Part shown: in pieces, positions 6,901 to 64,000 of the stretch
Layout: the number at the start of each line of letters is the position of its first letter
How positions within the stretch are numbered: position 1 is the first letter of the stretch
Source: Barthelona sp. PCE
Taxonomy: Eukaryota
Assembly: GCA_040285745.1 (NCBI GenBank)
Contig: JAUFOR010000004.1
Coordinates: forward strand, 496,001 to 560,000
DNA length: 64,000 bases
Direction of reading: 5' to 3'
Position numbers and translations under genes: made by a program
The notes under the pieces: model-generated
Database searches by the model: none
Told to the model about the DNA's origin: nothing
What the model saw: the letters and a program-made list of their open reading frames with translations, nothing else

Positions 6901-9900
6901 GACAATGTGTTTGACAAGTCATCACTCCTCAACATGGCACATAAGGCAGAAGCAATCATCACTTCAATTATACGGTGGAACAAGGTGCGCCTCATGCGCC
7001 CAGAGGTGCCGTTTGAGTCGACAGATCGACAGATCCCTCTTTGTGATCCTTTTAAATTGCACCCGCTCAAACCATACTTCACACTTCTCAAGGATCTAAT
7101 CCATAACAGTCCTGTTGAGGAAGTTGTGATGTTCAACGAGCATCCGTTTGAGTTCTTCAAGGTTGTTCGATCAGGACTTGCAGGACTCTCACAGTTTGAC
7201 TCATCGTCAAACACTTCTTACGATGATATATATAGTACAATGGTTTTCATGATTGATTTGGTGCGAACAAAAATGGAAGATGTTATATCATCAATTGTGG
7301 AGTTCAAACAACAACCGTCGCTGAACAGGAAAAAATTGACAGAAGATAACTCTGTATATCACATGATGTTGAGCATTTTCATGTGTACAGCAGCACTTTT
7401 TGAGCTCCAGGTCAGTTTCCCTCCTTCTCATGAAAAAACAATCATAATTAAGAAGATTGCCGAAGTGGAAGGTATTATTGTTGATCACATTGTTGAACAA
7501 GAACTGAACCCAATTGATTTACTCAACGCATTTATTTTAACCCAGCATATTGGATCAATACTAATTCGCCGAAAATGTTCTTATGTCTTGGATCGAATCT
7601 TCTCTGAATGGAATAATCGTTGCGAAGAGAAAGGTCTGTTTTTGGCTGATAATGACTATTTCAGCACAAACTGGCTGTATCACACGACATCACATTTGGC
7701 ATCTTTCTCCCATGCGGAACGTCAAGCTACAGAGATCTATTTAGCACTGTTGATGTCTTATCTAGTTGAAGTCAATGACAATGGATCCATTCGAGTTCTT
7801 TACGAAACCCAGCTTTGTTCAGCTTTCTTAGAAAGTAACGAGGTTATCGGTCATTTTATTGTAAGATCAATCAGACTCAATCAGTTACCCTACGTGGCGC
7901 TATCACAGAGTATGTGTCACAAGCTCTTCCTTGACTTCTCATACATCATTTTAAACAGTGGAGATGAGGATAAACATTATGCAACGATAAAATGGTTGGT
8001 AAAATTCCTGAGCGATTACAATATGGCGATTCGGGACCTGGCCTTCTTTGTGTTGCATTTCTTAACCTTGGATGTTGATGTCATGTCACCATGGGATGGT
8101 ATGCTCAACTTCAAGCACCATTATTATACCCAGTGCTGGCAACCGCTCGCCATCGATATGTTCCGCCGGGAACTAAACTCTACATTTAACGAGAAACCTT
8201 TAGGTGGCACGTTCGATTTCAAAGGAACATGGACGGAGCATGAAAACACACGATTCATGCGTGCGTTACTGGAGCGACAAAAGTACTGCTGTTCTGTTGA
8301 TGAAATTGGTATAGTATCAAATGTACGTGAGATGTTCCTACCCAACAATGTATTTTTGGATCCACGTTGTGACTTTGAGAAAAATCAGATACTTTTCATG
8401 GCTAAACCCATTGAGAAGCAGGAATTATTGACTTTAGATACTCTTTTGTCAGCAATATCCAGTTGCAATCTCAAAATTCAACCTGATCTAGATTATACTG
8501 TTATACCATTACTAAGTCGCATCTTTTCTCTACTCCGTTTTTATTTCAAGCGTCCAGATATAGAAAAAGATCCTTCAATATTGTGGGAGGCACTTGATGC
8601 TAATGACAGCATACTTAATATCATCAGTGTTATTGAGCCTTACATAGCCACCGTATTATCCCGTCGCTATTTTGATATCCAGGATAACACGCTTCGTGGT
8701 AGCATCAACCCTCTTCACTTCCGTTTCAGTCAGGCTGCAATCGAGAGTGAACGTATGTACGTCCTCAACGGTTTCTTGAGTGAGAAAACAAAGGATACTT
8801 ATGTTCTAGTCGAGATGCTTGAGCTGCTGCGTCAAATAATCAAGTTATGTGCTGATTTTAATTATCGCCTGGGTTCGAAGAAGAACATAGATCTGTCACA
8901 TTTAAAGACTGTTGAAAACAAGTTCTCCAAGCACTTTGCAACTATTGTATGTCTGTGTTATGTAAGTGGTAACGTTGTTGTCTCAACTAAGGCTCGCATG
9001 CTTGCACTTGAACTCAGTCGTGTTGGTCCTTGCAGTAACAGGTATTACTGGTCTGAAAACGAAAGCGTAATGCAAATAGTTGCTCCCCTTATTGTTTTCA
9101 ATGGCGCTGACACTTTCAAGGAGATGAGCACTGCTTATTGCAAGCTTCTCATGCAACTCTCGTTTTCGTTCCCTATCACATTCCAAAAACGATTATTAAC
9201 AACCGGTATCCAACCAAATGCAATCTTTCAGCAACTTGTTGATCCTCCAGTTATCAACACGTTGTTTATTCTACTAACAATCATCAACAGTGCTGTCTCC
9301 CCATCTGAACTCTCTCGTTCCTTATGGGATGCTATTATGGAACTATTATTCCCACATCCCAAATTCGATACACTTTTGGCGACAACACTCGTATATCCCA
9401 AAGCTCTTATGAGACTTTTCAATGAGTTAGGTCCTGCCACCGTCAGTATGGCCGGTGGACTCACAATTTTATGTGAGAAACAAATTGATTTTGCCATCAC
9501 AAAGTTCTTCCATGAACTGTTACATTCTGCAGGAGAGTGTTTCAATAACATTCTGAAGTTCCCCTCATTCATTAACTTCTGTCTTCAATTAAAAACACGT
9601 GGACGCATGGCACTGACCAAGATTCTAATGGAAAAATCAAAAAAAGGAACTTTTGAATACCCTATCAACAACCGCTCACGTGCAGTTGAAATAACTCAGA
9701 CGCTTGTTTCACAGATCCCTTATGCATTCACAGGATATTTTACGCAGGAGGACTTTAGAGAACTTCCCCTCAACCGTCCTGCTTTGTTGAATAACTTAAA
9801 ACGTTCACTTCAAATTGAGCTTGTGAATATGGAGGAGAACTACTTCGAAATGCTCCAATCCGTCAATCCTAGCATACCCCAGCAATCAGCTATGGTTTTA

Positions 9901-12900
9901 CCAATCACCAACACAATTAGCTCAACACTAATGTCTTCACTGTTGTTCTGCACACAGGTAACGGATACACTCATGAGCTTCAGTTCAAGCATATTCCAGA
10001 TTAAGAAACTCATCAGCGACGCCATGGAAGGAAGTCAGGCTTACATTGGGTTCTTTGACATGCTTTTTGATACTATTGTTATGTGTTTGGCGACAACAGA
10101 CTATCATCCTGGTACCAACCGTATCAGCTTCAAGTCGCTCACGCATTCCAAGATTATCCAAAGATTGCTGCCACAGATGCCTGGTATCGTTCTCTATAGG
10201 TTTTTCATTTGGTTACTTGAGCAATTGAAGCTCCCATACATACCCAACAACACCAATGACGATTCACCGCGTGTCAAGGTGGAGGAGCGCTTTGTCGTGA
10301 GCCAGAGCATGTGCTCTCTTCTGAGCAACTGTTCGACCAATAGTTTCCACCGATACCGTCTCCAGCTGATCCACTGTGCTTTGATTCCAGTACTGCATCA
10401 CATTGTGCGTCGTTGTATTCTTCGAATCCAGCACAACAACGACCCTGAGTCATACACACCTTTCAACAAGTATCACAAACAAACCGAGCGACACTACTGG
10501 AACTACATGCTACATGAAATGTTCCCCTTTGAATACGAGCAGATCATCAACGAGACAATGCCATTGGTAACGTCAGTTGTCGCCAACTGCATCTCTCACA
10601 ATGATTTCCCGGAGGATGTCGGTCGTGCATTGGTGTATGGAACATGGCAGTTCTTTGATCATATCCTGTACTTTATGTGCGATTTATTCGAATTAAAGCG
10701 CAAGAACGATTCTAATGTCGAATTTGAACATATTAGCTGGTTAAACGATGTTGAACAATTCATCACTGAAGCACACTCTTATGTTAGCTCCAACCATCTA
10801 CTACAAACTGGTACTTTCAACGATTACTACTTTACTTCTCTCATGTATGTGCTCAAAATGCATTGTTTGGTCAGCGAAGACGCGTTAGTTAAACACGATC
10901 GCTCTGCCCAATTTGACATGTACATTATTTCTGCACTCAAGGAGGATCCCGGTATCTACGGAGATTACGTTAATGTTGGTCTTGTTAAATTGTTGGAAAT
11001 AGGTACTCGCTGTCGTAATTCTACATATGATGAGCACGTATCGTTTATCAATCGCATCTTCACCAATCGTATAGTCTTTTTAACCCGTGTTCGTCAGGTT
11101 CTTAACAGAATATCAACTGAGTTCCGTAAAGTATATAGGCTATTTACGATACTGTTCTACCTTCGCAAAGGACTGTTGCACGATTTCATCCCTTCGATAT
11201 ATCATGACTTAAACAGCACCGAGAATTTGTCTTCCAATGAGAAAGCAAACCTAAACCAGCTTTTGTTAGAGAAGGTTGGCGATATCTATCAGCACGTGTC
11301 ATCACGTTCTGTGACTTCTCATCTCTTTAACTTACTGAATATTTCAAACAGTTGCGTTTCACGAGATGATCAGTTTTTGTTCAGATCGATTAAACTTGGT
11401 TGTTTACTGATTTATATTAGTAGATTAGGGCTGGAACTGCACAATGAGCAGGCCAACAGTGAATTCAATGAAAAAAGGTTGAAGTTCCTCTTCTCGGCAA
11501 CTTCAAGTAACTTGAATAATTTGTTGGTTAGTTTTAAACAACCTCACATGCAGCAAAACCCAAGGAGCCTTGAGATATTGAACGTCACTTGCGAAAGTAT
11601 TGTGCTTCTTTATCAAAACTGGCGTACGAATGTTCTTGAGAATGAGCAAACACGCACTCTTTTCTTCCAAATTGGTGGAGCCGAATTAGAGATCAGAGAT
11701 AGCTATAAGCATACCACAGGGCAGCTTGTTGACAAACGCATAGGCCTGTTGAAGCATATGATTCTGCAGTGTCCAGAGTTCCTCAACGTCATTGCACCCA
11801 CGTTCGCCCCACATGCAGCAAAAGCTGTAGCATGCGTGTCTTCGTGGGAGTGTAAGCCCAAGACGGATCCAGCACCTAAGGAAGTGTGTAATTTCCTGCT
11901 ATGGATCAGATCCCGAGGGTTAATGACCGAACAGGTTGCCAACAACTTCCTAAATGCTTTTATCGCAAGAGCATTGGAACTGAAACGCGCAATCAATAAC
12001 AGGTACAAGCGAAGTGAGGACATCTTACTCCTGTTCGCTGCTATGTCCATTATTAATCTCAAGTGTATTATGATTTGTCTATCGTGCATCTCTTTCCTTA
12101 GTGTCGACCAGAGCGAGCGACTTCTCGACATTGCCGTTAATGTTCTTGGGTACCGTAAGGAGTCGCTGACACCCCTTATGTCAAATATTGAGCAGGCGTT
12201 TGCTCCAGGCAACAACACAGGGTTCTTGCAGTATAAAGCCATGATTGATAACGTCAAGTCGCCCATTATTATTGAGTTCTTCCGATCCATGCATCCTCAC
12301 TTCGAGGCGTTCGTTTGGCACTCTATCAGATACGCATTCATGCTACTTTCGCGTTTGTCTATAACACTAACGATTGATAAGTTTACTCCACGTTCTAACA
12401 ACATCGTGCGTGGTAAAGGAATGAAGTCGGTCAAAAGACCCCCGCGTGCATCCGCTGCAACAGCAACGGAGTATACAATTGCGAGTATGGCGCTTCGAGT
12501 GTACTCATTCGTGATGAAGGATCTGCTCAGCCAGTTCAAAGTAGGCGTCACATCTGTCTACTACCGTCTCTACCTATCCTTCATTATCAGAGATGTCGTG
12601 TACGGTATGTTCTCACAGCACGAGTTTGCAGAGACAGTTCAACTAGCGTTCCAGGCTGCAGTCTTTGAGACTCGATCTGATCATCAGGCACATATGTCAC
12701 ATTGTCCTTTGTTCAACTCCAGCGATATCCTCGACATAGACTCTACATACTCGTTCTTTGATAACGGAAACCGTGACTATGATCCTTATGACGTCTTCTA
12801 TTCCCGCTTGAAGATTGATAGAGAGAAGCTAACCTACACTCTCTTCTCACCTCTGTGGATGCGCTTCCATCTGCTGCTTGCTCGTCTTTTGGCTGTGTAT

Positions 12901-15900
12901 GAGACTGATATCCAGTCGTTTAAAACCGTCAATAATCAAGTTACTTCGCTAGCCCCGTTGTGGTCTGTACTGGTGAGCTACTTCTGGACGTACATATTCC
13001 ACATTAATTCCAGTGACTTCTGGGAGGTTCTGATTGAGTGTGGTGCTGCTGCTATTTCTTCAGAACTGGCCCTGAGATTCGCTTACCTTCAGCTTTGCGT
13101 CAACGCTAAAGGCGCTTCGCTTGCCAACGATATTAGAAATGTGTGGTCGTACATCCTAAGCGGCATCATCACATCGAAGCGCTGCGACGCATCCATCACA
13201 CAAGCCTTCGCCTCTCATCTCCGCCTCGTAACGACGCTGCTTCTTTCATCTGAAGAGAATAATCCTGGTGAGCACATATCACAACGCCTCTTCCCGTTCA
13301 CAACATCTCTACACACGTGGGGCAAGATCCTCGAAAAACACTATAAGATGATGTACAATCCAAGTGATTCAATGGTGTCCACCTCATACGGTGATATTCA
13401 TTTGTTCTCAGCGTACTCCAACACGTTCGCGGAGTCCCTCATCGTCATGAACGACACGGACCTCATGTCCGAGTATTTCAAGATGTCCTTCAAGTCATCG
13501 TGGTCTTTCCTCTTGACCGAAGCTGATTCGCTTGTGCATGTCCCAGCGGATAACCTCCGCCCTGGGTTCTACACGCCTAAACAGGTGTTGATGCAGTTGG
13601 AAACGTGTTTCATGCACAACGACAACATTGAGCCCATTGCTTTTGTGAGTAACTTTGGTCTTCAGACTGTCCCGCAGCTTCTATTCGAGGCTGTCAGCGA
13701 GCTGTTGACAATGCGTGTAATTGAAGACGCAGATATGTTGCCGAAACTTAACCTAAAGCTTCTTGGACATATTGCGAGCACCTACCAGTATCCTCTGACG
13801 GTTGTTAAATTACTCAAGGAAAGATATGTGCTCTCCCCTGAACGCATAGAAGAGCTAACGGCCCCAACGATCGGCATTGCGCTCAACATTCTGTTTGAGA
13901 ACGGTGATTCCTTCTTGGCGAGACACTTCCTTGTTGAGTTCTTAAAGAAGGATAGCAAACCCACAACTATCACATCTCAGCTAATCAACAACCTAGAACT
14001 TTTGGGTGTGTACGAGATTCAAGGATTGACTCGCCAGTGCTGTGATATTGCATTTGATTGCGTGCTTATTGCACAAAACGAAAGCAGACCAATGGTTTTC
14101 AAGTTCTTGCTTGATGATTGTATTCGTCTCATGAAATTGTGCGGAGACTTTAAGTCAATTCGTCTGTTGAGTGAGAAACTGATGATCAGTCAGGTGACAC
14201 ACACTGATGCACATATCGTCTTCCCCTGTCCAAAGTCCATTGACCCGATCGTGACAATGGAAGCGTTTGCGTTAAGCACTGACTGGAATAACGACTCTTT
14301 CTGTCAGATCTTCAATGGCTACATTTCATCAATGTATCCAGCCGTACAGATGCAGAGGACAAACGCGCAGAAGAAGAAGCCCGTGCATGTCAAGGCCGAG
14401 GACGCCCAACTGATTGGAAGAGTATTGAGTGACCACGACAGACTTATGCGCTTCCTCAAGATTACTCTACTATCTAAGGATGGTCTGCTTGGTGAGAACA
14501 CTCTACATGCCTTGGGACTTGGTACGCTCGCCCAGGATTATGTATCTGTGTTGTATCAGCGTCACATGTCTAACAAGTTTGTTTCTCTTGATAAGATTCT
14601 GAAGGGATTGGTTCGCTTTGAATTCACTTCGGCGGTTGGCGTACAAGGGTTGGTTCCTGCACGCCTGCACATGTCTCTTTTCAGAAATGTGCCAAACGAC
14701 GAGTTAATGATGCGCTTCTACGCGGAACAACGGGTGTTCGAGTCTTTACCGCATTTAGAGGATACAATCTTCAACCAAAGGTATCTTGCACACGTGTCCA
14801 CTGTTTCACAAATTGTAAGGCAGCTGAAGAATCGTAAATGCTACGATATCTCTCTTGCATTGTTGGAGGAGCACTTTAGGAATATTCCACCTATCATGTA
14901 TGAGGTCGATGCAGGCCAGCTGTACTTAGGCACCACTCTTCGCGAGTATATACTCCTCTTGTTACATGACCAGAATCCAAACACCATGTTGCATGCGCTC
15001 AAGTACCTTGACGAACAGTGTGTTTTATGGATAGAGCGCTGTGATAATCCTCAACTAACATCCATGATGTATTCTCTCCGTGGCCGTGTGTTAAGCAACC
15101 TGTACGACCGCCTCATGCGCCTAAAGAGCAAGAGCCGATTTGACAGCAAGCTGGAGGAGACCATTTTACGTCTTAACCGATACTTTGAGTCAATTACGAA
15201 TGCACCAATTGAAACAAACATGATAGAGTATGTTCTCGAGAAGGCCAACGTCTACCTGTCAAGCAGCATACGTACGATGCCCAACAATAACAGCACACCA
15301 GCAGGGACTCCTTCGTACTGGAAGAACTATTCCATTCACTGTCGAAGGGTCCTTTACTCTTTTAAGACAATCAACGCTGAGTTCTACAAATGGATGAAGC
15401 ACTATATTATCACACAGCTCGTGGCATCCCTCTTCGACGCACAAGGAGCCACAGTCCTGAGCAGATCCAACGTGTTGACTAATGTTTTCTACCTCCTTTG
15501 CCTTCATCACGAAGAACTGTCGAAGGATGAGAGATTTATGAAGCGTGTTCAGCGCCTCTCCACCGAGAAGTTGCTGTTCTCGTGGATTATTTGGAATCTT
15601 GACTTCTTCCTACGCTTGTTCATTTTTGGTCCGAATTACGATACGGATACAGATGCTTGGGAAACACCAGACTGGTTTGTGCTCATGCTCAAGAACACAC
15701 TAGCGGTTAACAACATGCTTGTTCCCATGCAGCTGCGTCAGTCAAAGAAACACCTTCGGCACCTCGCCCCTATCGTTTTCTTTGGTTACATGGTTTTGTG
15801 TGACGCTGACGATGACGTCGTTGGTATGTCCCTTGATGACATCACAGACCACTTCACAAAGAATAGGGAAAGATCTAAGGTTGACGCAAACGCCCTTACA

Positions 15901-17298
15901 TTTGTCCAGATTCTTTCAGAGAACCATTCCGATAAGGTACGTGATATATGGTCTCTGCTCTCAAAGATAGAGGATCTCACTCTCTTCCAGGAGATCTTCC
16001 AACGCGTACAAAAGATGGCTGATCAAGTCGCAACCAGCATTCAAAACCGTGAATCCGTTGATATCAAACAGTATGTTCAAGGTCTCATTGCAGATTACAA
16101 TCACTTTATTGAAACAAAGGCGGTGGGTAGTAACTTGCTTGACTCGGTAGTGTGCCAGTCACACTGTCAGGTCAGCTCATATATCCGCATTGCATTGGTT
16201 GGTCTTGATGAACGATTGTCTGCGTGTTCGAATCTTGCAGATGTTGCAAAGATTCTGTACAGCTTAATGGATATCCTGACTGATTCATTCCGTACTGTTG
16301 TGCCCGGTATCGTTAAGAACTCAACATCAACCAGCATGTTTGTATTTGAACTCATTCTAGGTAAGCGGATCCGCTCTATGTCGCCTCGAGCATACGTCAC
16401 GCCCACCAAAACTACCCTGTGTGCTCTCACAGTCAATGGTAGATACACTGATCTTGCTGTGAGATACAGCTCGTATAAAGACTACAAGGCACGTAGATTC
16501 CTCGACGTTCGGGCACTACACGTTGTTGAAACCGATGTTTTGCCCCTGAGCAGGTCCTTCTTGCACAGATGCTCAATTGCTGAAAATAGTTTGATCTTGC
16601 ACATGCCCAACATCCATGCTGTCATTAGTGAGCAGCTATCAAAAATTCACAACTTGCCCAAATCTTCCAACAAGCGTAGGCTTCCCTTGGAAACACTCCT
16701 TAATGACCAAATTTCTCTCCATATTCCTAAACAGTCTTCGATCGAACAAACACTTCATATGAAGCGCAACTTATGTGTGGGGATGATCAAGGCTTACTTA
16801 ACAAGTCATGTGATGGGTTTACCTCTACCGCGTCTACACGAGTTCTCTGTAGACTTCGAACGAATTTCGCTACGTGTTCTCTCAGCTGCAGGACCAAATG
16901 CACTGGGCCGATCAGATTCTCTGAATGCGCTTCCATCTTCATTAATGAGATTTGTTGGAAAGCAGCTCTTCATCGGATTGGGTATCCCCGCTGCTATTCG
17001 TTTTGTTAATGATGTTCAAACATTCGACAATTTGCCTGGCCGAGAATTCCAAGTTATACTGGACGATATCCATAAGTTTGCCTTTGGTTATTACATCAAG
17101 AAGTCTCAAGCATTCAGACATCAAAGGGTATGTCTTATATCCAAACGACTGCATAAACTCATGACGGACACTGACGACGTTTTATCAAGGTCCAAATTAC
17201 GCAAACACATTCATGAGAAGGTTGTAAGTCTTATCAAGACATGCGCAGATCAAAAGATAAACAGTATGCTACCTGTTCAGCTAGGTTATTATCTTTAA
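3946..17298 (+). CDS. TRRAP: Giant intronless PIKK-family protein, Tra1/TRRAP-like (helical solenoid, degenerate kinase-like region, FATC-like end)
   Basis: 4450 aa from ATG 3946 (MDAFATF), helical throughout. LPSSLMRFVGKQLFIG resembles the PIKK 'PFRLTPNI..FIG' segment, and the terminal MLPVQLGYYL* resembles FATC. No DRH/DFG catalytic motifs were seen. Confidence 0.55.
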   Translation: MDAFATFSEFLDQAPSFEDHILNKLTSIYDPIRCDLERLHLSPNEHKTTFHRVMEWIRALQPQNLVDNRIDPLFDFVVHFPLCPVFEEFSKDIIVLVLNMGCSSLVRQEITPELKLKLVKLLLIVHTRYTVHRFTEATVQTLSVSEKMFNSSLLEIFYRLFASTLQEITYSECSPDIFLFVLQVTVTFSELDGNVHKSALAFFVNTFLTEDVQNLIVKTFNDRSNNDNSDYLEKLFQLAFHVYLMLFKFQNDIDNPLVLNHLRTIKMFVREYLPIWHLSLNTETLTKLSLLIDLSGISLDDFLLNTHYPTRQDSPLATNSQVRSMLVELTHTANQFTNLEGTFAKRLAHIMYLCSLIESPCFVIEEVIGFQYWLFSREVPTKAGPFEVLVEMAIALGKEHYQSLLFVISRLFHVFESRITMLNDLMFQMSSEFVNENDRISTIPLTDHFASYFPYEVLEQCDIRPPTKEECAKYKDLAPKYLILSNATMNVLFRKFFYWMYWVTMSLRMFVDIIKKNIIDGLEAKKHSNISPFQNAEFSNLYAKSSFSIVYSLMQITLKHSYLFSSTLNSIPRAKVAPSRAARYFIEIVSAFARCDSDSTHALIRRLFDENHDKILLFPNFFRVIFQYIMSAQQQQQSEKSLQIPLGGVLDPPAILLNVRRFVLNYYAQILFQLTAMSHHPYGYIHNNRTVEIDNDFVSTHDIITATEPDFFVFDCDPAFETLKKHKSLIYYLKVSNLNSIGQYRHGYNFPLFETMLDNFLTGVLYLFVGSYTLRGFTKQLFEEMEAILLSLVAALKKTKHVTTLIGFFQTFVNCALSQSKVSKTNANALRRIEHIIYFLWQTILDLMQVDSLKIKNDAALLGLTTIEVIPTQILAFCKSLHPIFVHSLSTFSILKNNGRVIVTVTHAFSKTIDILSRLVQLEKEWVNAGQEARKRLDELNHVQDELVDATEFEHEILLPLMKCASLARYSDSTLDHLGAYVTVFDNVFDKSSLLNMAHKAEAIITSIIRWNKVRLMRPEVPFESTDRQIPLCDPFKLHPLKPYFTLLKDLIHNSPVEEVVMFNEHPFEFFKVVRSGLAGLSQFDSSSNTSYDDIYSTMVFMIDLVRTKMEDVISSIVEFKQQPSLNRKKLTEDNSVYHMMLSIFMCTAALFELQVSFPPSHEKTIIIKKIAEVEGIIVDHIVEQELNPIDLLNAFILTQHIGSILIRRKCSYVLDRIFSEWNNRCEEKGLFLADNDYFSTNWLYHTTSHLASFSHAERQATEIYLALLMSYLVEVNDNGSIRVLYETQLCSAFLESNEVIGHFIVRSIRLNQLPYVALSQSMCHKLFLDFSYIILNSGDEDKHYATIKWLVKFLSDYNMAIRDLAFFVLHFLTLDVDVMSPWDGMLNFKHHYYTQCWQPLAIDMFRRELNSTFNEKPLGGTFDFKGTWTEHENTRFMRALLERQKYCCSVDEIGIVSNVREMFLPNNVFLDPRCDFEKNQILFMAKPIEKQELLTLDTLLSAISSCNLKIQPDLDYTVIPLLSRIFSLLRFYFKRPDIEKDPSILWEALDANDSILNIISVIEPYIATVLSRRYFDIQDNTLRGSINPLHFRFSQAAIESERMYVLNGFLSEKTKDTYVLVEMLELLRQIIKLCADFNYRLGSKKNIDLSHLKTVENKFSKHFATIVCLCYVSGNVVVSTKARMLALELSRVGPCSNRYYWSENESVMQIVAPLIVFNGADTFKEMSTAYCKLLMQLSFSFPITFQKRLLTTGIQPNAIFQQLVDPPVINTLFILLTIINSAVSPSELSRSLWDAIMELLFPHPKFDTLLATTLVYPKALMRLFNELGPATVSMAGGLTILCEKQIDFAITKFFHELLHSAGECFNNILKFPSFINFCLQLKTRGRMALTKILMEKSKKGTFEYPINNRSRAVEITQTLVSQIPYAFTGYFTQEDFRELPLNRPALLNNLKRSLQIELVNMEENYFEMLQSVNPSIPQQSAMVLPITNTISSTLMSSLLFCTQVTDTLMSFSSSIFQIKKLISDAMEGSQAYIGFFDMLFDTIVMCLATTDYHPGTNRISFKSLTHSKIIQRLLPQMPGIVLYRFFIWLLEQLKLPYIPNNTNDDSPRVKVEERFVVSQSMCSLLSNCSTNSFHRYRLQLIHCALIPVLHHIVRRCILRIQHNNDPESYTPFNKYHKQTERHYWNYMLHEMFPFEYEQIINETMPLVTSVVANCISHNDFPEDVGRALVYGTWQFFDHILYFMCDLFELKRKNDSNVEFEHISWLNDVEQFITEAHSYVSSNHLLQTGTFNDYYFTSLMYVLKMHCLVSEDALVKHDRSAQFDMYIISALKEDPGIYGDYVNVGLVKLLEIGTRCRNSTYDEHVSFINRIFTNRIVFLTRVRQVLNRISTEFRKVYRLFTILFYLRKGLLHDFIPSIYHDLNSTENLSSNEKANLNQLLLEKVGDIYQHVSSRSVTSHLFNLLNISNSCVSRDDQFLFRSIKLGCLLIYISRLGLELHNEQANSEFNEKRLKFLFSATSSNLNNLLVSFKQPHMQQNPRSLEILNVTCESIVLLYQNWRTNVLENEQTRTLFFQIGGAELEIRDSYKHTTGQLVDKRIGLLKHMILQCPEFLNVIAPTFAPHAAKAVACVSSWECKPKTDPAPKEVCNFLLWIRSRGLMTEQVANNFLNAFIARALELKRAINNRYKRSEDILLLFAAMSIINLKCIMICLSCISFLSVDQSERLLDIAVNVLGYRKESLTPLMSNIEQAFAPGNNTGFLQYKAMIDNVKSPIIIEFFRSMHPHFEAFVWHSIRYAFMLLSRLSITLTIDKFTPRSNNIVRGKGMKSVKRPPRASAATATEYTIASMALRVYSFVMKDLLSQFKVGVTSVYYRLYLSFIIRDVVYGMFSQHEFAETVQLAFQAAVFETRSDHQAHMSHCPLFNSSDILDIDSTYSFFDNGNRDYDPYDVFYSRLKIDREKLTYTLFSPLWMRFHLLLARLLAVYETDIQSFKTVNNQVTSLAPLWSVLVSYFWTYIFHINSSDFWEVLIECGAAAISSELALRFAYLQLCVNAKGASLANDIRNVWSYILSGIITSKRCDASITQAFASHLRLVTTLLLSSEENNPGEHISQRLFPFTTSLHTWGKILEKHYKMMYNPSDSMVSTSYGDIHLFSAYSNTFAESLIVMNDTDLMSEYFKMSFKSSWSFLLTEADSLVHVPADNLRPGFYTPKQVLMQLETCFMHNDNIEPIAFVSNFGLQTVPQLLFEAVSELLTMRVIEDADMLPKLNLKLLGHIASTYQYPLTVVKLLKERYVLSPERIEELTAPTIGIALNILFENGDSFLARHFLVEFLKKDSKPTTITSQLINNLELLGVYEIQGLTRQCCDIAFDCVLIAQNESRPMVFKFLLDDCIRLMKLCGDFKSIRLLSEKLMISQVTHTDAHIVFPCPKSIDPIVTMEAFALSTDWNNDSFCQIFNGYISSMYPAVQMQRTNAQKKKPVHVKAEDAQLIGRVLSDHDRLMRFLKITLLSKDGLLGENTLHALGLGTLAQDYVSVLYQRHMSNKFVSLDKILKGLVRFEFTSAVGVQGLVPARLHMSLFRNVPNDELMMRFYAEQRVFESLPHLEDTIFNQRYLAHVSTVSQIVRQLKNRKCYDISLALLEEHFRNIPPIMYEVDAGQLYLGTTLREYILLLLHDQNPNTMLHALKYLDEQCVLWIERCDNPQLTSMMYSLRGRVLSNLYDRLMRLKSKSRFDSKLEETILRLNRYFESITNAPIETNMIEYVLEKANVYLSSSIRTMPNNNSTPAGTPSYWKNYSIHCRRVLYSFKTINAEFYKWMKHYIITQLVASLFDAQGATVLSRSNVLTNVFYLLCLHHEELSKDERFMKRVQRLSTEKLLFSWIIWNLDFFLRLFIFGPNYDTDTDAWETPDWFVLMLKNTLAVNNMLVPMQLRQSKKHLRHLAPIVFFGYMVLCDADDDVVGMSLDDITDHFTKNRERSKVDANALTFVQILSENHSDKVRDIWSLLSKIEDLTLFQEIFQRVQKMADQVATSIQNRESVDIKQYVQGLIADYNHFIETKAVGSNLLDSVVCQSHCQVSSYIRIALVGLDERLSACSNLADVAKILYSLMDILTDSFRTVVPGIVKNSTSTSMFVFELILGKRIRSMSPRAYVTPTKTTLCALTVNGRYTDLAVRYSSYKDYKARRFLDVRALHVVETDVLPLSRSFLHRCSIAENSLILHMPNIHAVISEQLSKIHNLPKSSNKRRLPLETLLNDQISLHIPKQSSIEQTLHMKRNLCVGMIKAYLTSHVMGLPLPRLHEFSVDFERISLRVLSAAGPNALGRSDSLNALPSSLMRFVGKQLFIGLGIPAAIRFVNDVQTFDNLPGREFQVILDDIHKFAFGYYIKKSQAFRHQRVCLISKRLHKLMTDTDDVLSRSKLRKHIHEKVVSLIKTCADQKINSMLPVQLGYYL

Positions 17299-50055: not shown

Positions 50056-52587
50056 ATGAAGGAAGACATCATTCAACTGGACAAATCTTTATCATCCGTC
50101 GATGACGCGTTTTTTGATGAAGCATACAGTGAGGAACAACTTGTTTCCTCTTTATTAGATAGCATTGATGGTGAATTCGTTGATAATCCTGTATTTGTAT
50201 CAAAGGTAGCAGCTTTAAGGCAGCAACATGACGTATTGCATAGTGTTTTGAGCACAACAGTTATCAAGAACAGCGAGAAATTTGTTAATGGGGTCAATCT
50301 CATTCGTAAAGTAGAGAATTCTCTTTCTTTTGGAGAGGTATTCTGTGTCAATGCCCAGAAAACCATCGAAACCAGTCTAAAAAAGGAGCTTCAAATCCTT
50401 GAACATATCATCATTGAATCTCGATATCAACACGTTGTTGAGCTTGAACAAGAGCTTAAACTCGTCCACGACTACCTATCGGGCGTCGACGAGTGCATCA
50501 AGGAAATTGAAGAGAGCCAATTATCCGTTGATTTGAATAATAAGTATCAAACTTTATTGGGCAATTTGAACCATTTCGAAAAGTATAACTTTTATATCAC
50601 CCTCCGTGACCGTATCCTCGGAATCAAGTTTACCCTTTTGAATAGTACAAAAGATACACTCAAAAACTTTTTAATGCAAAATTATGTTAAAAGTGAACAT
50701 TTAGGAAACGTTCTTAGCACTTTGGAGATCTTGAATGTCCCTTCATCGGAAGTGTCACAGACAATTGTGACACAGATGCATGCGATCTGGCGTAGAGAAA
50801 TTTTAAGAGGGTTGCTTCTTGAAAAATACCATATGCACAAAAACAAGAAGTTTGAGGATGTTCTCAAGCAAGTACTCCCACTCCGATCCATATACACTCT
50901 CGAGTCATACTGCTCCACTCTCCAGGAGCTATGCATGAGGTTTAAAGTTTTCATTGACGCACTTGACCACAATACCAACGCAGAAATAATATCAAGATTA
51001 TTGAGTGAGCGCCGCATTCTGCTGGAAATCGTGCACTCATCATTCAATTTCCTACTGCATGGTCTGGGTGAGGCGCAAATGACAATTCAAGGATTTAAAG
51101 TTGTGGCCAACACAATCGATCGTCTGGTGTGGACTTCCCTCCGCTTCCTCGGACACAGTGGCTTGGTTGAATACCCTGAAGCGACGGAAATAGACGATAG
51201 CAGTCTCTTTTCTGTTTACCAACACCTTTTAGTTGATATGTTCGAAGGAATCATTGCTCAGTCAACAGCTTCTTGCATTGCTCAGTTGAATGAGACTGTG
51301 AAACGTGAGACGTGGATGCTGGTTGATTTCGATGCTGACACACCTCGCCGTTTGGTGGAGCACACAATGCATCTCGGTATGCTAGCGTTCTTCCCATTCA
51401 CTGAGGATGACGTCTCTGACGAGGTGTGCCTAATTGACGAGTACACGGTTGAGCGGGAGATGCATACGATTCCTAAACTCCCCTCTTTCGACGGACAGAC
51501 GACCAACACTTTTGTTTTGATGTACCAGTTGGTACAGGAGCTCACACAGCTGTCTGTAACGTTCCCTCCGTGCAGTTCCATGAGTTATGCGTGTGTTTAT
51601 TACATCGCCGAGTTCTATTTGTACGCAGTATATTGCCTTTTCGCAGTGACAACCGTACCACCATTTGGCATTGACGTATCGTCATTGACGAGTTCACTGG
51701 GTCAGTGGTACTACCACCGCCTAACCTGGATGTTTGATCCGCTGAGAGCTGACCGCCGCATGCCTTGCTTTTTTACGTCGTTGCAGAAACCCGCAAACCC
51801 TGAGATGATCAGCGACAACCTGCGCATCCGAGGCATTACGATGCACCAGAGATTCAATGTGGTCCAAGACCTGCTCAGTATGCCTCGATTTTTGAAGCGG
51901 CTGACTAAGGGTCGTCATGATCCTATCTCGCAGTTCTTTGCCCAGTTTGGAGTTGCTGGTTTTGAGGAACTTGGACTGTTTTGTATGAGGACAACGTGCG
52001 TTTTGGTACTTTCAAAGATGAAATTCCCAACAACCAGTTTTAACCAGACAAATATGGCAGCTCCCCAGAAGTGGGTGCAAGCTGTAATCAAGTTTTTGAA
52101 GAAGGAGAAGAAAAGAATAGATAGCTTCAATCTTACAGATGCTTTTATCACACAGTATCATACGACACTGCTGGAGCTCGCAGTCAAGTGGGTGTCTTCC
52201 TTCATTGCCAGTATGACCTCGTGCTCAGAGCTCGGTCGCACTCAGATGTTGATGGAGATACAGACTTTGGTGGGAGAACTAAGCACTGTATTTGTTTCCG
52301 AGTCTGCAACTCTCGTTCCCCTTACACTGTTTGCTAAATGTCTTGTCTTTGATGGTGATACTCTCCTTGAGTTTATGATGGAAAGCGCAGCACAACTGAA
52401 CGAGGCGCAAGTTTCGAGTCTGGCCAGATTCTCAAATGCTTCTACTTCTGAGCCACCGGAGATGCTTCACGCGAAACTGTCTGCAATGCATAGGAACGCT
52501 CAGATGCGTGCAAACTTCGGAGTGCTTGTTCCGCCCGAAGAATATGAATTACCTGTTTTCGTTTTTCCTCCCTTTAAATCGAAGTAA
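50056..52587 (+). CDS. VPS50: Vps50/syndetin (EARP subunit)-like
   Basis: N-terminal Vps54_N-like coil (LSTTVIKNSEKFVNGV), ETWMLV, IAEFYLYAVYCLF, CSELGRTQMLMEIQ. Confidence 0.75.
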   Translation: MKEDIIQLDKSLSSVDDAFFDEAYSEEQLVSSLLDSIDGEFVDNPVFVSKVAALRQQHDVLHSVLSTTVIKNSEKFVNGVNLIRKVENSLSFGEVFCVNAQKTIETSLKKELQILEHIIIESRYQHVVELEQELKLVHDYLSGVDECIKEIEESQLSVDLNNKYQTLLGNLNHFEKYNFYITLRDRILGIKFTLLNSTKDTLKNFLMQNYVKSEHLGNVLSTLEILNVPSSEVSQTIVTQMHAIWRREILRGLLLEKYHMHKNKKFEDVLKQVLPLRSIYTLESYCSTLQELCMRFKVFIDALDHNTNAEIISRLLSERRILLEIVHSSFNFLLHGLGEAQMTIQGFKVVANTIDRLVWTSLRFLGHSGLVEYPEATEIDDSSLFSVYQHLLVDMFEGIIAQSTASCIAQLNETVKRETWMLVDFDADTPRRLVEHTMHLGMLAFFPFTEDDVSDEVCLIDEYTVEREMHTIPKLPSFDGQTTNTFVLMYQLVQELTQLSVTFPPCSSMSYACVYYIAEFYLYAVYCLFAVTTVPPFGIDVSSLTSSLGQWYYHRLTWMFDPLRADRRMPCFFTSLQKPANPEMISDNLRIRGITMHQRFNVVQDLLSMPRFLKRLTKGRHDPISQFFAQFGVAGFEELGLFCMRTTCVLVLSKMKFPTTSFNQTNMAAPQKWVQAVIKFLKKEKKRIDSFNLTDAFITQYHTTLLELAVKWVSSFIASMTSCSELGRTQMLMEIQTLVGELSTVFVSESATLVPLTLFAKCLVFDGDTLLEFMMESAAQLNEAQVSSLARFSNASTSEPPEMLHAKLSAMHRNAQMRANFGVLVPPEEYELPVFVFPPFKSK

Positions 52588-53033
52588 TGGTGCGTAAGAC
52601 GATTCGCCCGGCTGGTTTAGGGCGCGCAAACCATCAAATTCTTCTTCCTAAACGCAGGAAGAAAAAAGCCCATCATTCAATTAACAGTGGAAATACAATC
52701 ACTTTAAGCAATCATCAGAAGCTTTATGTGAAGCGTATCACGAAAAGACACGTTGGATACCATAGAGTAAGAGAAATTCTTCAAAATAATGGATTTCACA
52801 GTATTTCTGAATCAGTAACGTTATATATTGCTTATTCTCATCAGAACACAGAGGTTGGCATCGTTGCTATGGTGGGAAATGTGGTGGAAGCGATGTACAC
52901 GAAGAAATTGTTCCAACGTAAGAAGCTCATGACTAATTTACTTCGATACATCAGCATTGATGTTGGTGCCAAGTTGGAATTCACATCTCTAACGGAGGAG
53001 GGAAGCCTATTTCTGAATAAGTTCAACAAATAA
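52587..53033 (+). CDS. Eco1/ESCO-like acetyltransferase domain protein
   Basis: VEAMYTKKLFQRKKLMTNLL...LEFTSLTEEGSLFL parallels the ESCO C-terminal pattern RIWV...RRK.IA..LL...AFS.PT..G..F. Confidence 0.55.
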   Translation: MVRKTIRPAGLGRANHQILLPKRRKKKAHHSINSGNTITLSNHQKLYVKRITKRHVGYHRVREILQNNGFHSISESVTLYIAYSHQNTEVGIVAMVGNVVEAMYTKKLFQRKKLMTNLLRYISIDVGAKLEFTSLTEEGSLFLNKFNK

Positions 53034-60195: not shown

Positions 60196-60402
60196 ATGTA
60201 TAAATTATTGGACGTAGAACCAAGTGCGGGCATTGTGCTGGGCACAAGTGAGTTAAAAACCGAATTGAACGAACCTTTTTTTCGTTTACGATTAAAACTG
60301 CAAGAGCAGGACACAGATAAGATTCAATACCGAACCATTGAGGTGTCTCCAGACAAGATGGCCGAGTTCCGTTCTATTTTTGCACGCTTAAGTGATGAAT
60401 AG
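60196..60402 (+). CDS. COMM-domain-only protein, COMMD6-like
   Basis: KLLDVEPSAGIVLGTSE...EPFFRLRLKL....RTIEVSPDKMAEFRSIF parallels COMMD6 LVDFQWKLGMAVSS...PYVAVMLKV...FEMTIPQFQNF. Confidence 0.65.
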   Translation: MYKLLDVEPSAGIVLGTSELKTELNEPFFRLRLKLQEQDTDKIQYRTIEVSPDKMAEFRSIFARLSDE

Positions 60403-60731
60403 TACAGTTTAACATTTTGTCAAATTAATAAGATTGTGATGTGTTTCCATTAAGGATAACTGTTAGATCTTGCTTCAATGTAGATAGTCATGATATCAGA
60501 ACCGTCTCAATCATAGTAAAATACATATTATTAAAGCCGGATTTCAAAGATATTCATTTGGGTGACATACAGGCGCTAGCCTTCAGACTTTATACTTGAG
60601 GTAGTAAACAGCGGAGGGGGACGAAGCGAACCGTCATGTGTAGTAGGTGTCCGTAGGACCCGATACGGTTTTTCTTACCTTTTTCAAAAAAAAATCTTAC
60701 TTTAGTATTGCTGCGCAAGAAATTAATTGCA

Positions 60732-62228
60732 ATGACATACTTTAGAGCGGAAAGGCAAACGAAAGAACAAGTTGCGCGCGCTATCCAGCATAGATGCGAG
60801 ACGTATATTGCGCGCCTGAGTGTCGTGGTTATGGAGACCTTGTGCAAGGTCCACGAGGCGGATCCCGCCGGTAAAGCCCACCTGATTGAGGCTCTCCCGA
60901 GTTACGGGCGCGGCGAGTACGCCGACGTAATGCTCTCACCGTGCGTGTTGAGCGAGGACTTCCGGGGGTGGTTACAAGCATTGGGCGAAGATGAATGTCA
61001 ACAAGGTGTTGACAAGGTCCTCCCAGCAATTTCCTTTAGCCTAGAGAGGTTTAGGGAACTTGCAAATCTTTTCGGCATGCGCCCATCCAAGTCATTAGCC
61101 AAGAATATTGAGGAGTCGGACATTAGAGGAGTCCGAGAGATGATTAGAGCTGCCGAAAATCACTGGAAGGCAGCTCCGGCTCTCATAACGCAGGAACTGG
61201 ATGCGTTCACGGCAGCAAAGAGGGAGGCTGACAAGATCGAGGGAATATCGGACGTCGACAAGAAACAGCTCATCAAGACGATTACGCAACAGGTAACGCA
61301 TGCGAAGGAGCAGGCGCTGAACGAGACGCGGAAGCAGACAATGGCCGCGTGGGAAGAAGAACCATCCGATGACGAGACCGACACCCAGCACACGTCTTCG
61401 AATGCAGGAATGAACACCGCCATGCAGATCGCAAGGGACGCTACCGCTTTGGTGAGCGAGACGATGAAAGAGGCCAGGCAGAGTAGGATGAGAGCCACAA
61501 CCTATAACGAACCTTTCGATGCGGGCATCCAACAAGACAAACTACTCAGGAAGGTCAAACACCAATGGCAAAGAGGTCTGACATACGATAAGTTTATTGC
61601 CGCCATGGACAAGTTCCTCGAGGCGGAGATAAAGCGCAACCCCACGATCTTCGCTGGCGACATTGATCTCGGGCTCTGGAAAGTGGACGACGTCCTTCCG
61701 GACGCGTTTGTCGAGGAGGTGACGGACGACCACAAGGATAATTGGTTCCGCGAGTGGCAAATTCGTCTGAGGGACTTCAAGACGATCTACGAGGACAAGG
61801 TCGGATCCCAGTATGAACACGAGTGGCAAACCAAGCGTTTGTACTTGCTGATGGAAGCCGCAGCGGAAATGGCGTTGGGAGACACTCTCCTACTAATCGG
61901 CAAGCTGTATGAGGAACGGCCACACCTCATCCCGACCTTCATCGCTGCCGTCTCTCCATATGGTCCCAGCCGGGCCAACAGGGCGTCAGGTATCTACAAC
62001 GACGAACTCAACGTCGACCACGTGCCTGACAACTGGGTTGACGAGAATCGCGTGAAGCAATTCCTCACTAAGACGCTGGGAGTCGGTAGCTCCGGCATCA
62101 TGGTCGAGTTTGACCCCACCGCCACCAAGAAGGCGTTCAACCATTCCACGAGAGCCCCCAAGCGCACGCACCGTCCTAAGACGCAAAAGAAGAAACAAGC
62201 GTTTAGCGCCAAAGAGGAGGAGAAGTGA
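60732..62228 (+). CDS. Retroelement ORF1 (gag-like), 498 aa
   Basis: Lies upstream of the RT with the same composition; helical with a basic C-tail (RAPKRTHRPKTQKKK); no recognised motif. Confidence 0.7.
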   Translation: MTYFRAERQTKEQVARAIQHRCETYIARLSVVVMETLCKVHEADPAGKAHLIEALPSYGRGEYADVMLSPCVLSEDFRGWLQALGEDECQQGVDKVLPAISFSLERFRELANLFGMRPSKSLAKNIEESDIRGVREMIRAAENHWKAAPALITQELDAFTAAKREADKIEGISDVDKKQLIKTITQQVTHAKEQALNETRKQTMAAWEEEPSDDETDTQHTSSNAGMNTAMQIARDATALVSETMKEARQSRMRATTYNEPFDAGIQQDKLLRKVKHQWQRGLTYDKFIAAMDKFLEAEIKRNPTIFAGDIDLGLWKVDDVLPDAFVEEVTDDHKDNWFREWQIRLRDFKTIYEDKVGSQYEHEWQTKRLYLLMEAAAEMALGDTLLLIGKLYEERPHLIPTFIAAVSPYGPSRANRASGIYNDELNVDHVPDNWVDENRVKQFLTKTLGVGSSGIMVEFDPTATKKAFNHSTRAPKRTHRPKTQKKKQAFSAKEEEK

Positions 62229-62297
62229 AATCGTTCGTCTCCCCCCGCGCGTGATAGTAAATATCTATCCGACAAGGGTGTGGGAGACGCAAATGAT
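62226..62297 (+). promoter_or_regulatory. Candidate UGA readthrough signal (stop codon plus downstream stem-loop)
   Basis: TGA, 7-nt spacer, then CGTCTCCC (62236-43)/GGGAGACG (62282-89); inner CCC/GGG and GATAG/CTATC; outer ATCGTT/AATGAT. Confidence 0.6.
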
Positions 62298-64000
62298 CCC
62301 AATGCGGTCACAGCGCTCGCGGACAGGGTCGGCGAGCTCTCCATCGAGAACGTCAAATTGAAGAAGGAGATCAAGAGCCTCAAGAAGGAAATCCCTAAGA
62401 AGCAGCTCAAAGCCGCGAAGATGGAACTTCGCGCAGCTACCAAACTCGTGGAGCTCGAAGACAAAAGACTAGAAGCCATCAAAGCTCGGGAAAGGAGCAC
62501 ACAGAAAACAAAAGCACCTGAGGACGTTAAACGGGAGAAGCCCCGTAAGGAGAAAGCACCAACAGCTACTAGCGTGCAGAAGATGATCTCCAAAGAGATC
62601 AACAAACTCAAACACGAGGTTGTAGATGAGCGGAATAACGTCCAAATCTCAAGAAATCCGAAGGAGGTAGTCGGCACAGACACCATGCAGTGGCCGGCCG
62701 CGGCGCCACCAGTAGCTCTGCTGAAGCACCTCCCACCCGACATCTTCCAGAAGGGCGGCCCAAGTCAACGAGTACTCAAAGAGGTGGTCCTAGGGGTTAC
62801 CGGAACATGGGATATCCTCGGAACAGACCAGATGAAGATCAATTCAGCCGACACGCCCACGGAACAGTTCGTGAGGGACGCCGCGCGCGTCGCTGGCCTC
62901 AGCTGCGAAGAAATTGAGAAGACAGTCCGACTGCTCGTGACTGAGGGCGTAACGCGCGACATGGTCGTTATCGAAGGAAAGAAGCCTCGCAGGCAGGAGC
63001 CAGTACGTCACTGGTACAAAGACGACGCCGTCGAATTGAACCTGGCCGTAACCGCGCTCAAAAGTAAGGACCTGATCAAAGAGGTCCCCATCGAAGAGAT
63101 CGAGGACGAACGAAGGGCATTCATTTCCATCGGCGCGGTCCCGAAGAATGCAGAACCGGACTCAAACAACATGTTCGCTCCGACGCAGAAGTTCGAATTT
63201 GACGTCACATCGCCGGACAACGAGCACAGGGTTATCGTCGACTGTACTAACACGAACTCTATGTTCGCCAACATTCCAATGGAACTCATCAAAACCCACT
63301 CTCTCGAGATTGTCATGGGTGGCAATCTCATGTATTCCGTCGACGCAAAGGATGGTTTCACGCTCATTCCACTGGACGAAGAGCTACAAAAACTGTTCTC
63401 ATTTACACACGAAGGTAAGCTTTATCAATGCACTAGAATGCCGTTCGGAGTTTCATTCGGCCCGGCCATCTTCGCCCGCATGATGAACCTGGCAACGACC
63501 GCAATGCGTGCGTTGGGATTCAACATCTGGAGCTACGTCGACGACGCTTTCGGATGGGAACGATCCCTCAGCAAAGCGAGGAACTCGATGATGCTGTTCA
63601 TAATCATCGCGTCGAAACTTGGCATCAAGCTAAACTACAAAAGTCCGTCAGTCCTTCGTACAAATTGGACATCATCGGCTACACGCTGAGCACCGACGAC
63701 CAGTCTGACGGCGGCCGGCTAGTCTCAACAATTAGACCGTCGGACAAGAACATCAGAAAGATCAGAGAGATGGCTCGCGTAATGCGAAATAGAATCGACA
63801 CAGCAGAACAAATCCCTGTCAGGGACATCATGAAGCTCGATGGCAAACTTGTATCATTTGCCAACGCCTCGACGATTCTTCAGCGGGTTCACCTACAGCT
63901 ACAAGCAGTACTGAAGGATCTCGACGCCCAATACGATAACGCGATATTTGACTCGAGCAGGAACAAGGGCCTACGCCTTCTCCTACCTCTTCCACTAGCC
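62229..64000 (+). CDS. Reverse transcriptase ORF (DIRS-type) with a 1-nt frameshift near 63640
   Basis: AVPK...RVIVDC, SVDAKDGFTLIPL, FSFTHEGKLYQCTRMPFGVSFGPAIF, SYVDD, LGIKLN. It continues in the -1 frame as KSVSPSYKLDIIGY...VRDIMKLDGKLVSFA to the window edge. Confidence 0.9.

Follow-up and report, generated by a model that had tools for sequence, protein, structure and literature searches.

A candidate structure-stimulated UGA readthrough signal between the Gag-like and Pol regions of a putative tyrosine-recombinase retroelement in Barthelona sp. PCE

Results

The DNA analysed here (the window) comprises 64,000 nucleotides (nt) of contig JAUFOR010000004.1 of Barthelona sp. PCE (assembly GCA_040285745.1, positions 496,001 to 560,000 of the forward strand). 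Its end, from about 60590 to 64000, is occupied by one long plus-strand frame of a retroelement with 48-53% G+C, compared with 34-47% G+C in the surrounding host DNA. The first open reading frame (ORF) of this element, ORF1, encodes a Gag-like protein of 498 amino acids (aa) and is followed by the Pol frame with the reverse transcriptase (RT). A previous reading of the window, made from its letters and ORFs without database searches (the sequence-only reading), had placed both in the same phase, split by a lone TGA at 62226-62228, with an open frame behind the stop and the first in-frame ATG 64 codons further on at 62421; the sequence agrees with all of these points. The frame beyond the TGA begins with NRSSPPARDSKYLSDKGVGDAND... 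and runs in the phase of ORF1 to 63638. ATG 62421 is the sole in-frame ATG between 62100 and 62500 and is preceded by two out-of-frame ATGs (62293 and 62302), and the ORF listing contains GTG 62280 as a possible non-ATG start. The stop itself stands in the context UGA-AAU-CGU, i.e. UGA-A. Reassignment of TGA was ruled out as an explanation: in 1-60400, the 26 ORFs that reach at least 150 aa, a set that includes nested ones, end in TAA (11), TGA (8) or TAG (7), so that TGA is a normal stop of the host and therefore not a reassigned codon, as had been argued before.

Folding of 62226-62300 by minimum free energy (MFE) recovered the hairpin of about 68 nt that the sequence-only reading had drawn, with its perfect 8-bp G+C-rich stem beginning 7 nt past the stop and its three extensions. 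In the core stem, CGTCTCCC / CGUCUCCC (62236-62243) pairs with GGGAGACG (62282-62289). CCC/GGG (62244-62246 with 62276-62278) adds to this core, GAUAG/CUAUC (GATAG/CTATC in the DNA) forms an apical stem, and AUCGUU/AAUGAU (62230-62235 with 62292-62297) a lower A/U-rich stem of 6 bp. The MFE of -29.1 kcal/mol compares with -16.2 +/- 2.8 kcal/mol in 200 dinucleotide shuffles (z -4.55), none of which was as good (0/200), and the hairpin ranks first among 1110 overlapping 72-nt windows of 60600-64000 (mean -15.7, standard deviation 4.7). When the 24 codons of the hairpin were resampled synonymously according to the codon usage of the element, a mean of -17.9 kcal/mol was obtained and 5 of 3000 sequences were as stable, and permutation of the synonymous codons inside the hairpin region produced 3 such sequences in 3000. 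In a fold of 371 nt, the pair probabilities reached 0.91-0.99 in the core and 0.55-0.81 in the lower stem. It is unlikely that this hairpin has arisen by chance, and the chance that the strongest hairpin of the element would meet the proper spacing from the one internal stop to within a few nt would be small, of the order of a few in 3400 positions. A search of 60400-64000 against Rfam at E<=1 was without result.

Behind the stop, the 64 codons that precede ATG 62421 carry a coding signature in the frame of ORF1. Scored with a codon table trained on the remainder of the element, they reach 21.7 in this frame (true coding chunks, 21.1 +/- 7.3) and -24.0 and -40.3 in the other two, and their G+C content at the three codon positions (GC1/2/3) is 0.55/0.38/0.69 vs. 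0.56/0.38/0.66 in the rest of the element. The signal stems from 62301-62420, the 40 codons just 5' of ATG 62421, which score 27.3 in the ORF1 frame and -26.1 and -12.6 in the others. The 24 codons of the hairpin (62229-62300) are atypical and alone score -5.6, a value expected of codons dictated by structure. This strong coding score upstream of ATG 62421, together with the lack of an earlier in-frame ATG and the presence of two out-of-frame ones, argues against a simple start at this ATG; a plain start of RT there, which the sequence-only reading had named as an outcome that would speak against it, is therefore disfavoured. The segment 62310-62410 (residues 27-59 after the stop) is heptad-like and lysine-rich, has a weak match to bZIP_1 (E 5.5e-4, 20.4 bits, below the cut-off of 27.6), and probably links Gag and RT as a coiled coil.

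The post-stop frame was used as query in a full HMMER search of 1.84 billion representative proteins, which returned 2602 proteins at E<=0.001, just two of them better than 1e-30. The protein P0001 (1923 aa, 99% identical) is the gene model of the window's own locus, and its 90% cluster contains four further models, P0151-P0154, from contigs of 1.33 and 2.13 Mb; the five family models are spread over three contigs. At the junction, all five read ...QAFSAKEEE / NKYLSDKGVGD... and omit the same 11 codons, K-stop-NRSSPPARDS, by way of a 33-nt GT..AG "intron". A sense codon in other copies, which would have pointed to a private nonsense mutation according to the sequence-only reading, was found at this site in none of the five models. 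Artificial-looking introns are also placed by these models at private lesions, such as one of 38 nt at a 1-nt deletion in P0152 and, in P0001, one of about 80 nt where the window's copy is frameshifted, and we therefore regard the 33-nt "intron" as probably an annotation device. Given that a gene predictor would have no reason to splice over a sense codon, we infer that all five copies carry the stop, and that the window's copy is probably not alone in having it. With the exception of P0151 (1876 aa), which is interrupted only by the 33-nt span, the models (four of five) bridge further lesions with introns of their own.

Over 1766 shared columns, the five models differ at 17 isolated positions, corresponding to 2-12 aa per pair, and fall into three sublineages (P0152, P0153 and P0154; P0151; and the window's copy). 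Since the stop is common to the three sublineages, each of which has private substitutions, it appears to be older than their split, in a family that the models suggest to be very young. The copies are too similar for covariation analysis. Contigs of DNA sequencing runs (5 + 5 from two runs, and 0 from a third) match scattered pieces of the element at 95-100%, and none of them spans 62196-62423. Low-depth contigs of the two runs show single-base differences at 61403, 61597, 61661, 61684, 61712 and 62537. The last of these, G>T, changes E to D as also seen in P0151-P0154, and the variant contigs therefore probably derive from other copies or strains of the element.

The sole relative among the 1.84 billion representatives again belongs to Barthelona sp. 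PCE (models P0002 and P0156) and is 31% identical over the RT; the N-terminal part of P0156 is about 26% identical overall to ORF1. P0156 is modelled as one continuous protein from Gag to the C-terminal tyrosine recombinase (YR) domain, without a break at the junction, which suggests that this family produces Pol fused to Gag. Compared with P0156, P0002 is without 13 residues (39 nt) at ...SPKGVSK[YKQPRRPRRSRR]KLSTRVE, exactly in the basic patch with which the Gag-like part closes, at the position corresponding to the TGA, and one copy of the related element may have an interruption at this Gag/Pol border too. Word-index protein searches with the read-through query and with ORF1 alone, each of which scored about 8000 candidates, yielded no match at E<=0.001, within length windows that left out long models and with low-complexity words probably crowding the candidates; with P0151 as query, only its own cluster and three generic RT proteins were returned. 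A metagenome scan with the family alignment produced 80 pattern matches, of which 0 were confirmed.

The window stops within the RT. In P0151, a Gag-like part, the coiled-coil linker, RT, an RNase H (RH)-like region and a C-terminal YR-like domain follow each other in one frame, and the models of the other copies give a full read-through frame of about 1887 codons (Gag-RT-RH-YR). The fusion size given as over about 1090 aa in the sequence-only reading thus has to be replaced by about 1887 residues. The RT was recognised by RVT_1 (PF00078) at residues 356-469 of the post-stop frame with E 1.3e-12 (E 2e-14 was likewise obtained), and its nearest solved chains are the RTs of caulimovirus, foamy virus, Ty3 and HIV. 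No Pfam family was found in ORF1 at E<=0.01. The matches of the C-terminal domain to PF00589 (Phage_integrase) are weak in the element family and the relative (E 3e-4 at 21.1 bits, and E 6e-3; below the 27.1-bit cut-off). Both have in common the motifs LGCR...K...H-x-x-RAGR...G-x-W...N-x-x-YL, which may correspond to the catalytic residues R-K-H-x-x-R-[H/W]-Y of tyrosine recombinases. The atlas neighbours of this domain (score 0.97) are eukaryotic clusters with PF00589 (20-36% of members) and ALOG (81%). An AlphaFold2 model of the YR region from a two-sequence alignment was unusable (predicted local distance difference test, pLDDT, 41), a PDB profile search with the YR alignment gave a chance match only (E 0.37), and NCBIfam returned nothing meaningful for P0151.

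Pfam detected neither an aspartic protease nor a DDE integrase family in P0151 at E<=0.01, which fits the earlier claim that no protease is present to cleave the fusion. A methyltransferase match was likewise missing from P0151 and P0156 at this threshold, for a domain that Pfam may model poorly. From its domain content, the element appears to be a tyrosine-recombinase retroelement of the DIRS order with a Ngaro-like domain order. The label "DIRS-like" of the sequence-only reading therefore stands at the level of the order, by virtue of a YR-like C-terminus beyond the window, and finds no support for the DIRS1 superfamily, as no methyltransferase was matched. The coordinates of the features are listed in Table 1.

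Table 1. Features of the retroelement in the window (positions of the 64,000-nt stretch).
Feature	Position	Strand	Basis or remark
G+C-richer leader upstream of ORF1	60590..60731	+	composition step from 0.39 to 0.48-0.53 G+C
ORF1, 498 aa, Gag-like by position only	60732..62225	+	ATG 60732, open frame
GT..AG span of 33 nt excised as "intron" by public models, includes the TGA	62225..62257	+	junction in 5/5 models
In-frame TGA between ORF1 and Pol frame	62226..62228	+	same phase on both sides, single stop
Spacer of 7 nt, AAUCGUU, from stop to G+C core stem	62229..62235	+	sequence and fold
64 codons without in-frame ATG, coding signature in ORF1 frame	62229..62420	+	codon score
Hairpin, 68 nt	62230..62297	+	MFE fold of 62226-62300
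First in-frame ATG after the stop, candidate independent start	62421..62423	+	64 codons downstream
RT core as far as the frame break, with YVDD box	63294..63638	+	RVT_1 PF00078
Private frame break	63639..63642	+	AAAA; models of the other four copies read KK (...LNYKKSVSPSYKLDIIGYTL...), implying 5 A
Remaining RT in shifted frame, off the window end	63641..64000	+	open-ended ORF 63554-64000; matches continuation of P0151-P0154

DIRS1-like elements are marked by inverted terminal repeats together with an internal complementary region, and Ngaro/PAT elements by split direct repeats. No terminal repeats were found in the last 3.6 kb of the window, and no second copy of the element was detected in 1-60400 by blastn and tblastx. 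The private frame break is either a real loss of 1 nt or an assembly error in the homopolymer. The host part is very compact: ORFs of 150 aa or more take up 80% of 1-60400, and one of them, on the plus strand at 3946-17298, runs uninterrupted for 4450 aa. ORF-joining GT..AG spans (20-200 nt, strong 5' site, branch-like motif) were sought across the window; 8 candidates turned up, all of them weak, and not one was convincing as a host intron. The most intron-like candidate is a 94-nt span, GTAAGA...TTAACAG, at 52594-52687 of the plus strand, just past ORF 50056-52587. P0001 joins a small host ORF (MYKLLDVEPSAG..., 60196-60405) to the retroelement via a GT..AG "intron" of about 311 nt (60391-60701), and the model P0154 continues past the element into an ABC-transporter-like gene of the host. 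The genome annotation therefore includes chimeric host-transposon gene models.

Discussion

Retroelements need far more Gag than Pol. Retroviruses and long terminal repeat (LTR) elements classically achieve this by frameshifting or readthrough; little is known about the way in which YR elements adjust the ratio. For the Barthelona sp. PCE element, we consider structure-stimulated readthrough of the UGA to be the best reading of the data and hold it with moderate confidence. It is partly supported by the geometry, the exceptional hairpin, the shared stop, the coding signature behind it, the continuous relative and the use of TGA as a normal stop in the host. The 7-nt spacer followed by a stable stem agrees with the spacing of approximately 6-9 nt expected of stimulators. 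According to this reading, a young tyrosine-recombinase retrotransposon would hold its coding capacity in one frame, from the Gag-like protein across the UGA to the coiled-coil linker, RT, RNase H and YR. Most ribosomes would terminate at the UGA and free the Gag-like protein. With the UGA in the ribosomal A site, the 8-bp G+C stem 7 nt downstream would be positioned at the mRNA entry channel and impede termination, so that a minority of ribosomes would insert an amino acid and go on. The product would be a Gag-Pol fusion at a high Gag:Pol ratio, made without a frameshift or a protease. Passage of ribosomes through the stop, the hairpin as its stimulator and the efficiency of the process are what we infer.

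Several observations weigh against readthrough. The leaky 3' contexts UGA-C, UGA-CUA/CGG and CAR-YYA do not occur at this stop, and the 100 nt downstream of the hairpin contain no perfect complement of at least 6 nt to its interior that could serve as a pseudoknot partner. Although the hairpin is the most stable of the element, the next independent windows follow at -27.2 and -27.1 kcal/mol, a modest margin that makes it first and not an extreme outlier. The sharing of the stop is read from the gene models of the copies, and common ancestry alone could account for it at a protein divergence below 1%. Among copies this close, an intact downstream frame says little, and an ORF interrupted recently would inherit an identical coding signature. 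In addition, the RT of the window's copy is itself frameshifted by the AAAA at 63639-63642, although its frame is broken nowhere else. A published precedent also calls for caution. Tca2 of Candida albicans (Ty1/copia) is likewise a retrotransposon whose in-frame UGA is followed by a predicted structure, in its case a pseudoknot, and differs from our element as an LTR element of a yeast; its junction is reported to have given no readthrough in S. cerevisiae reporters (PMC2194720).

Three other explanations of the junction have to be weighed. The family might be translationally dead at this site, if a recent master copy had acquired a nonsense mutation and if duplication, or another element acting in trans, had then multiplied the few near-identical copies; the hairpin would in that case be coincidental or serve another purpose. 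The small distance of 2-12 aa between copies over the 1766 columns, which leaves little time for decay, is compatible with this history, as are the other lesions in four of the five models, the frameshift of the window's copy, the uninterrupted junction of P0156 and the ability of the DIRS-1 RT to work in trans (PMC7192593). However, a stop-free copy is represented by none of the five models, the stop seems to predate three sublineages that each gained later private substitutions, and this history does not account for the position of the element's strongest local structure, which begins 7 nt past precisely this codon. We therefore judge a dead family to be unlikely.

Alternatively, Pol could be made without passing the stop, by initiation at AUG 62421 or at an upstream non-AUG codon (GUG 62280), by termination-reinitiation, or from an internal promoter. 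An in-frame ATG 64 codons downstream and the possible GTG start are available for this, Gag and Pol ORFs are usually separate in YR retroelements (PMC3266345, PMC8547959), and a minor promoter is described in the Tca2 junction (PMC2194720). This route is nevertheless rather improbable in our view, given the ORF1-frame score of 27.3 for 62301-62420, 5' of the ATG, the out-of-frame ATGs 62293 and 62302 on the way to 62421 and the relative modelled as a single fused frame; the hairpin, moreover, would be left without a role. The least probable of these explanations, to which we give little credit, takes 62225-62257 as a real 33-nt intron, with Gag translated from unspliced RNA and Gag-Pol from spliced RNA that is in frame and free of the TGA. 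Exactly this junction is present in all five gene models, and the span has GT and AG ends and a length that is a multiple of three. Yet the same models contain evidently artificial introns at private lesions, the 5' site reads GTGAAA without a clear branch motif, and no convincing host intron emerged from the scan of the window, whose host part is filled to 80% by long ORFs.

Structure-stimulated readthrough, the reading preferred here, can be compared with known systems. Experimentally supported UGA/UAG readthrough stems start 7-9 nt past the stop and are approximately 10-14 bp long (Firth et al. 2011, PMC3159437). UGA readthrough with extended stem-loops is known from alphavirus nsP3/nsP4, from furo-, tobra- and pecluviruses and from Drosophila kelch and headcase, kelch having the stop context UGA-A (PMC3159437). 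Like these, the element combines an in-frame UGA with a spacer in the 7-9 nt range and a structure inside the coding sequence of the extension, and it shares the A after the UGA with kelch (PMC3159437). In contrast to them, its hairpin is compact with 68 nt, whereas many viral loops span 100-270 nt (PMC3159437), and its predicted perfect core has only 8 bp plus 3 bp beyond a bulge. The gag-UAG-pol arrangement of murine leukaemia virus (MuLV) is similar in its one frame, single stop, structure about 8 nt downstream and relation to a Gag:Gag-Pol ratio (PMC3159437, PMC4178896). It differs in having UAG instead of UGA, a pseudoknot instead of a simple hairpin and a DDE integrase instead of a tyrosine recombinase, and the fusion of the Barthelona sp. 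PCE element, which has no protease, would stay uncleaved.

With the described YR retrotransposons (DIRS1-like, PAT, Ngaro and VIPER/TATE), the element has in common a Gag-like ORF, RT, an RNase H-like region, a C-terminal YR-like domain and the lack of a protease and a DDE integrase (PMC3266345, PMC3783388, PMC6681497, PMC8547959). Unlike those elements, which have separate or overlapping ORFs and for which a readthrough stop is unmentioned in the available portions of the same four papers, all of its domains lie in one frame in the Ngaro-like order Gag-RT-RH-YR. It further differs from DIRS1-like elements in that no methyltransferase match follows the RNase H in P0151 and P0156 (Pfam).

Readthrough itself is already well known, and the setting in a YR retroelement would be the new part. 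We found no report of a readthrough stop in a YR retroelement in the portion of the literature covered, a provisional result because the founding DIRS and Ngaro papers lay outside it. It is conceivable, and we propose it with more doubt than confidence, that the junction is the first example of a recoding signal for tyrosine-recombinase retrotransposons as well as for metamonad-like protists, with hairpin-driven UGA readthrough dosing an uncleaved Gag-RT-RH-YR protein of about 1887 aa against free Gag. Because the relative P0156 has an uninterrupted frame from Gag to YR, the pair may, within the same tentative proposal, show how a readthrough signal arose recently in an element that used to have a single ORF. 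The candidate signal is compact (72 nt), is backed by several independent computations and can be easily tested. If it is true, structure-stimulated readthrough would be extended to a new class of elements and to a deep-branching protist lineage, in which a large Gag-Pol fusion would function without proteolytic processing.

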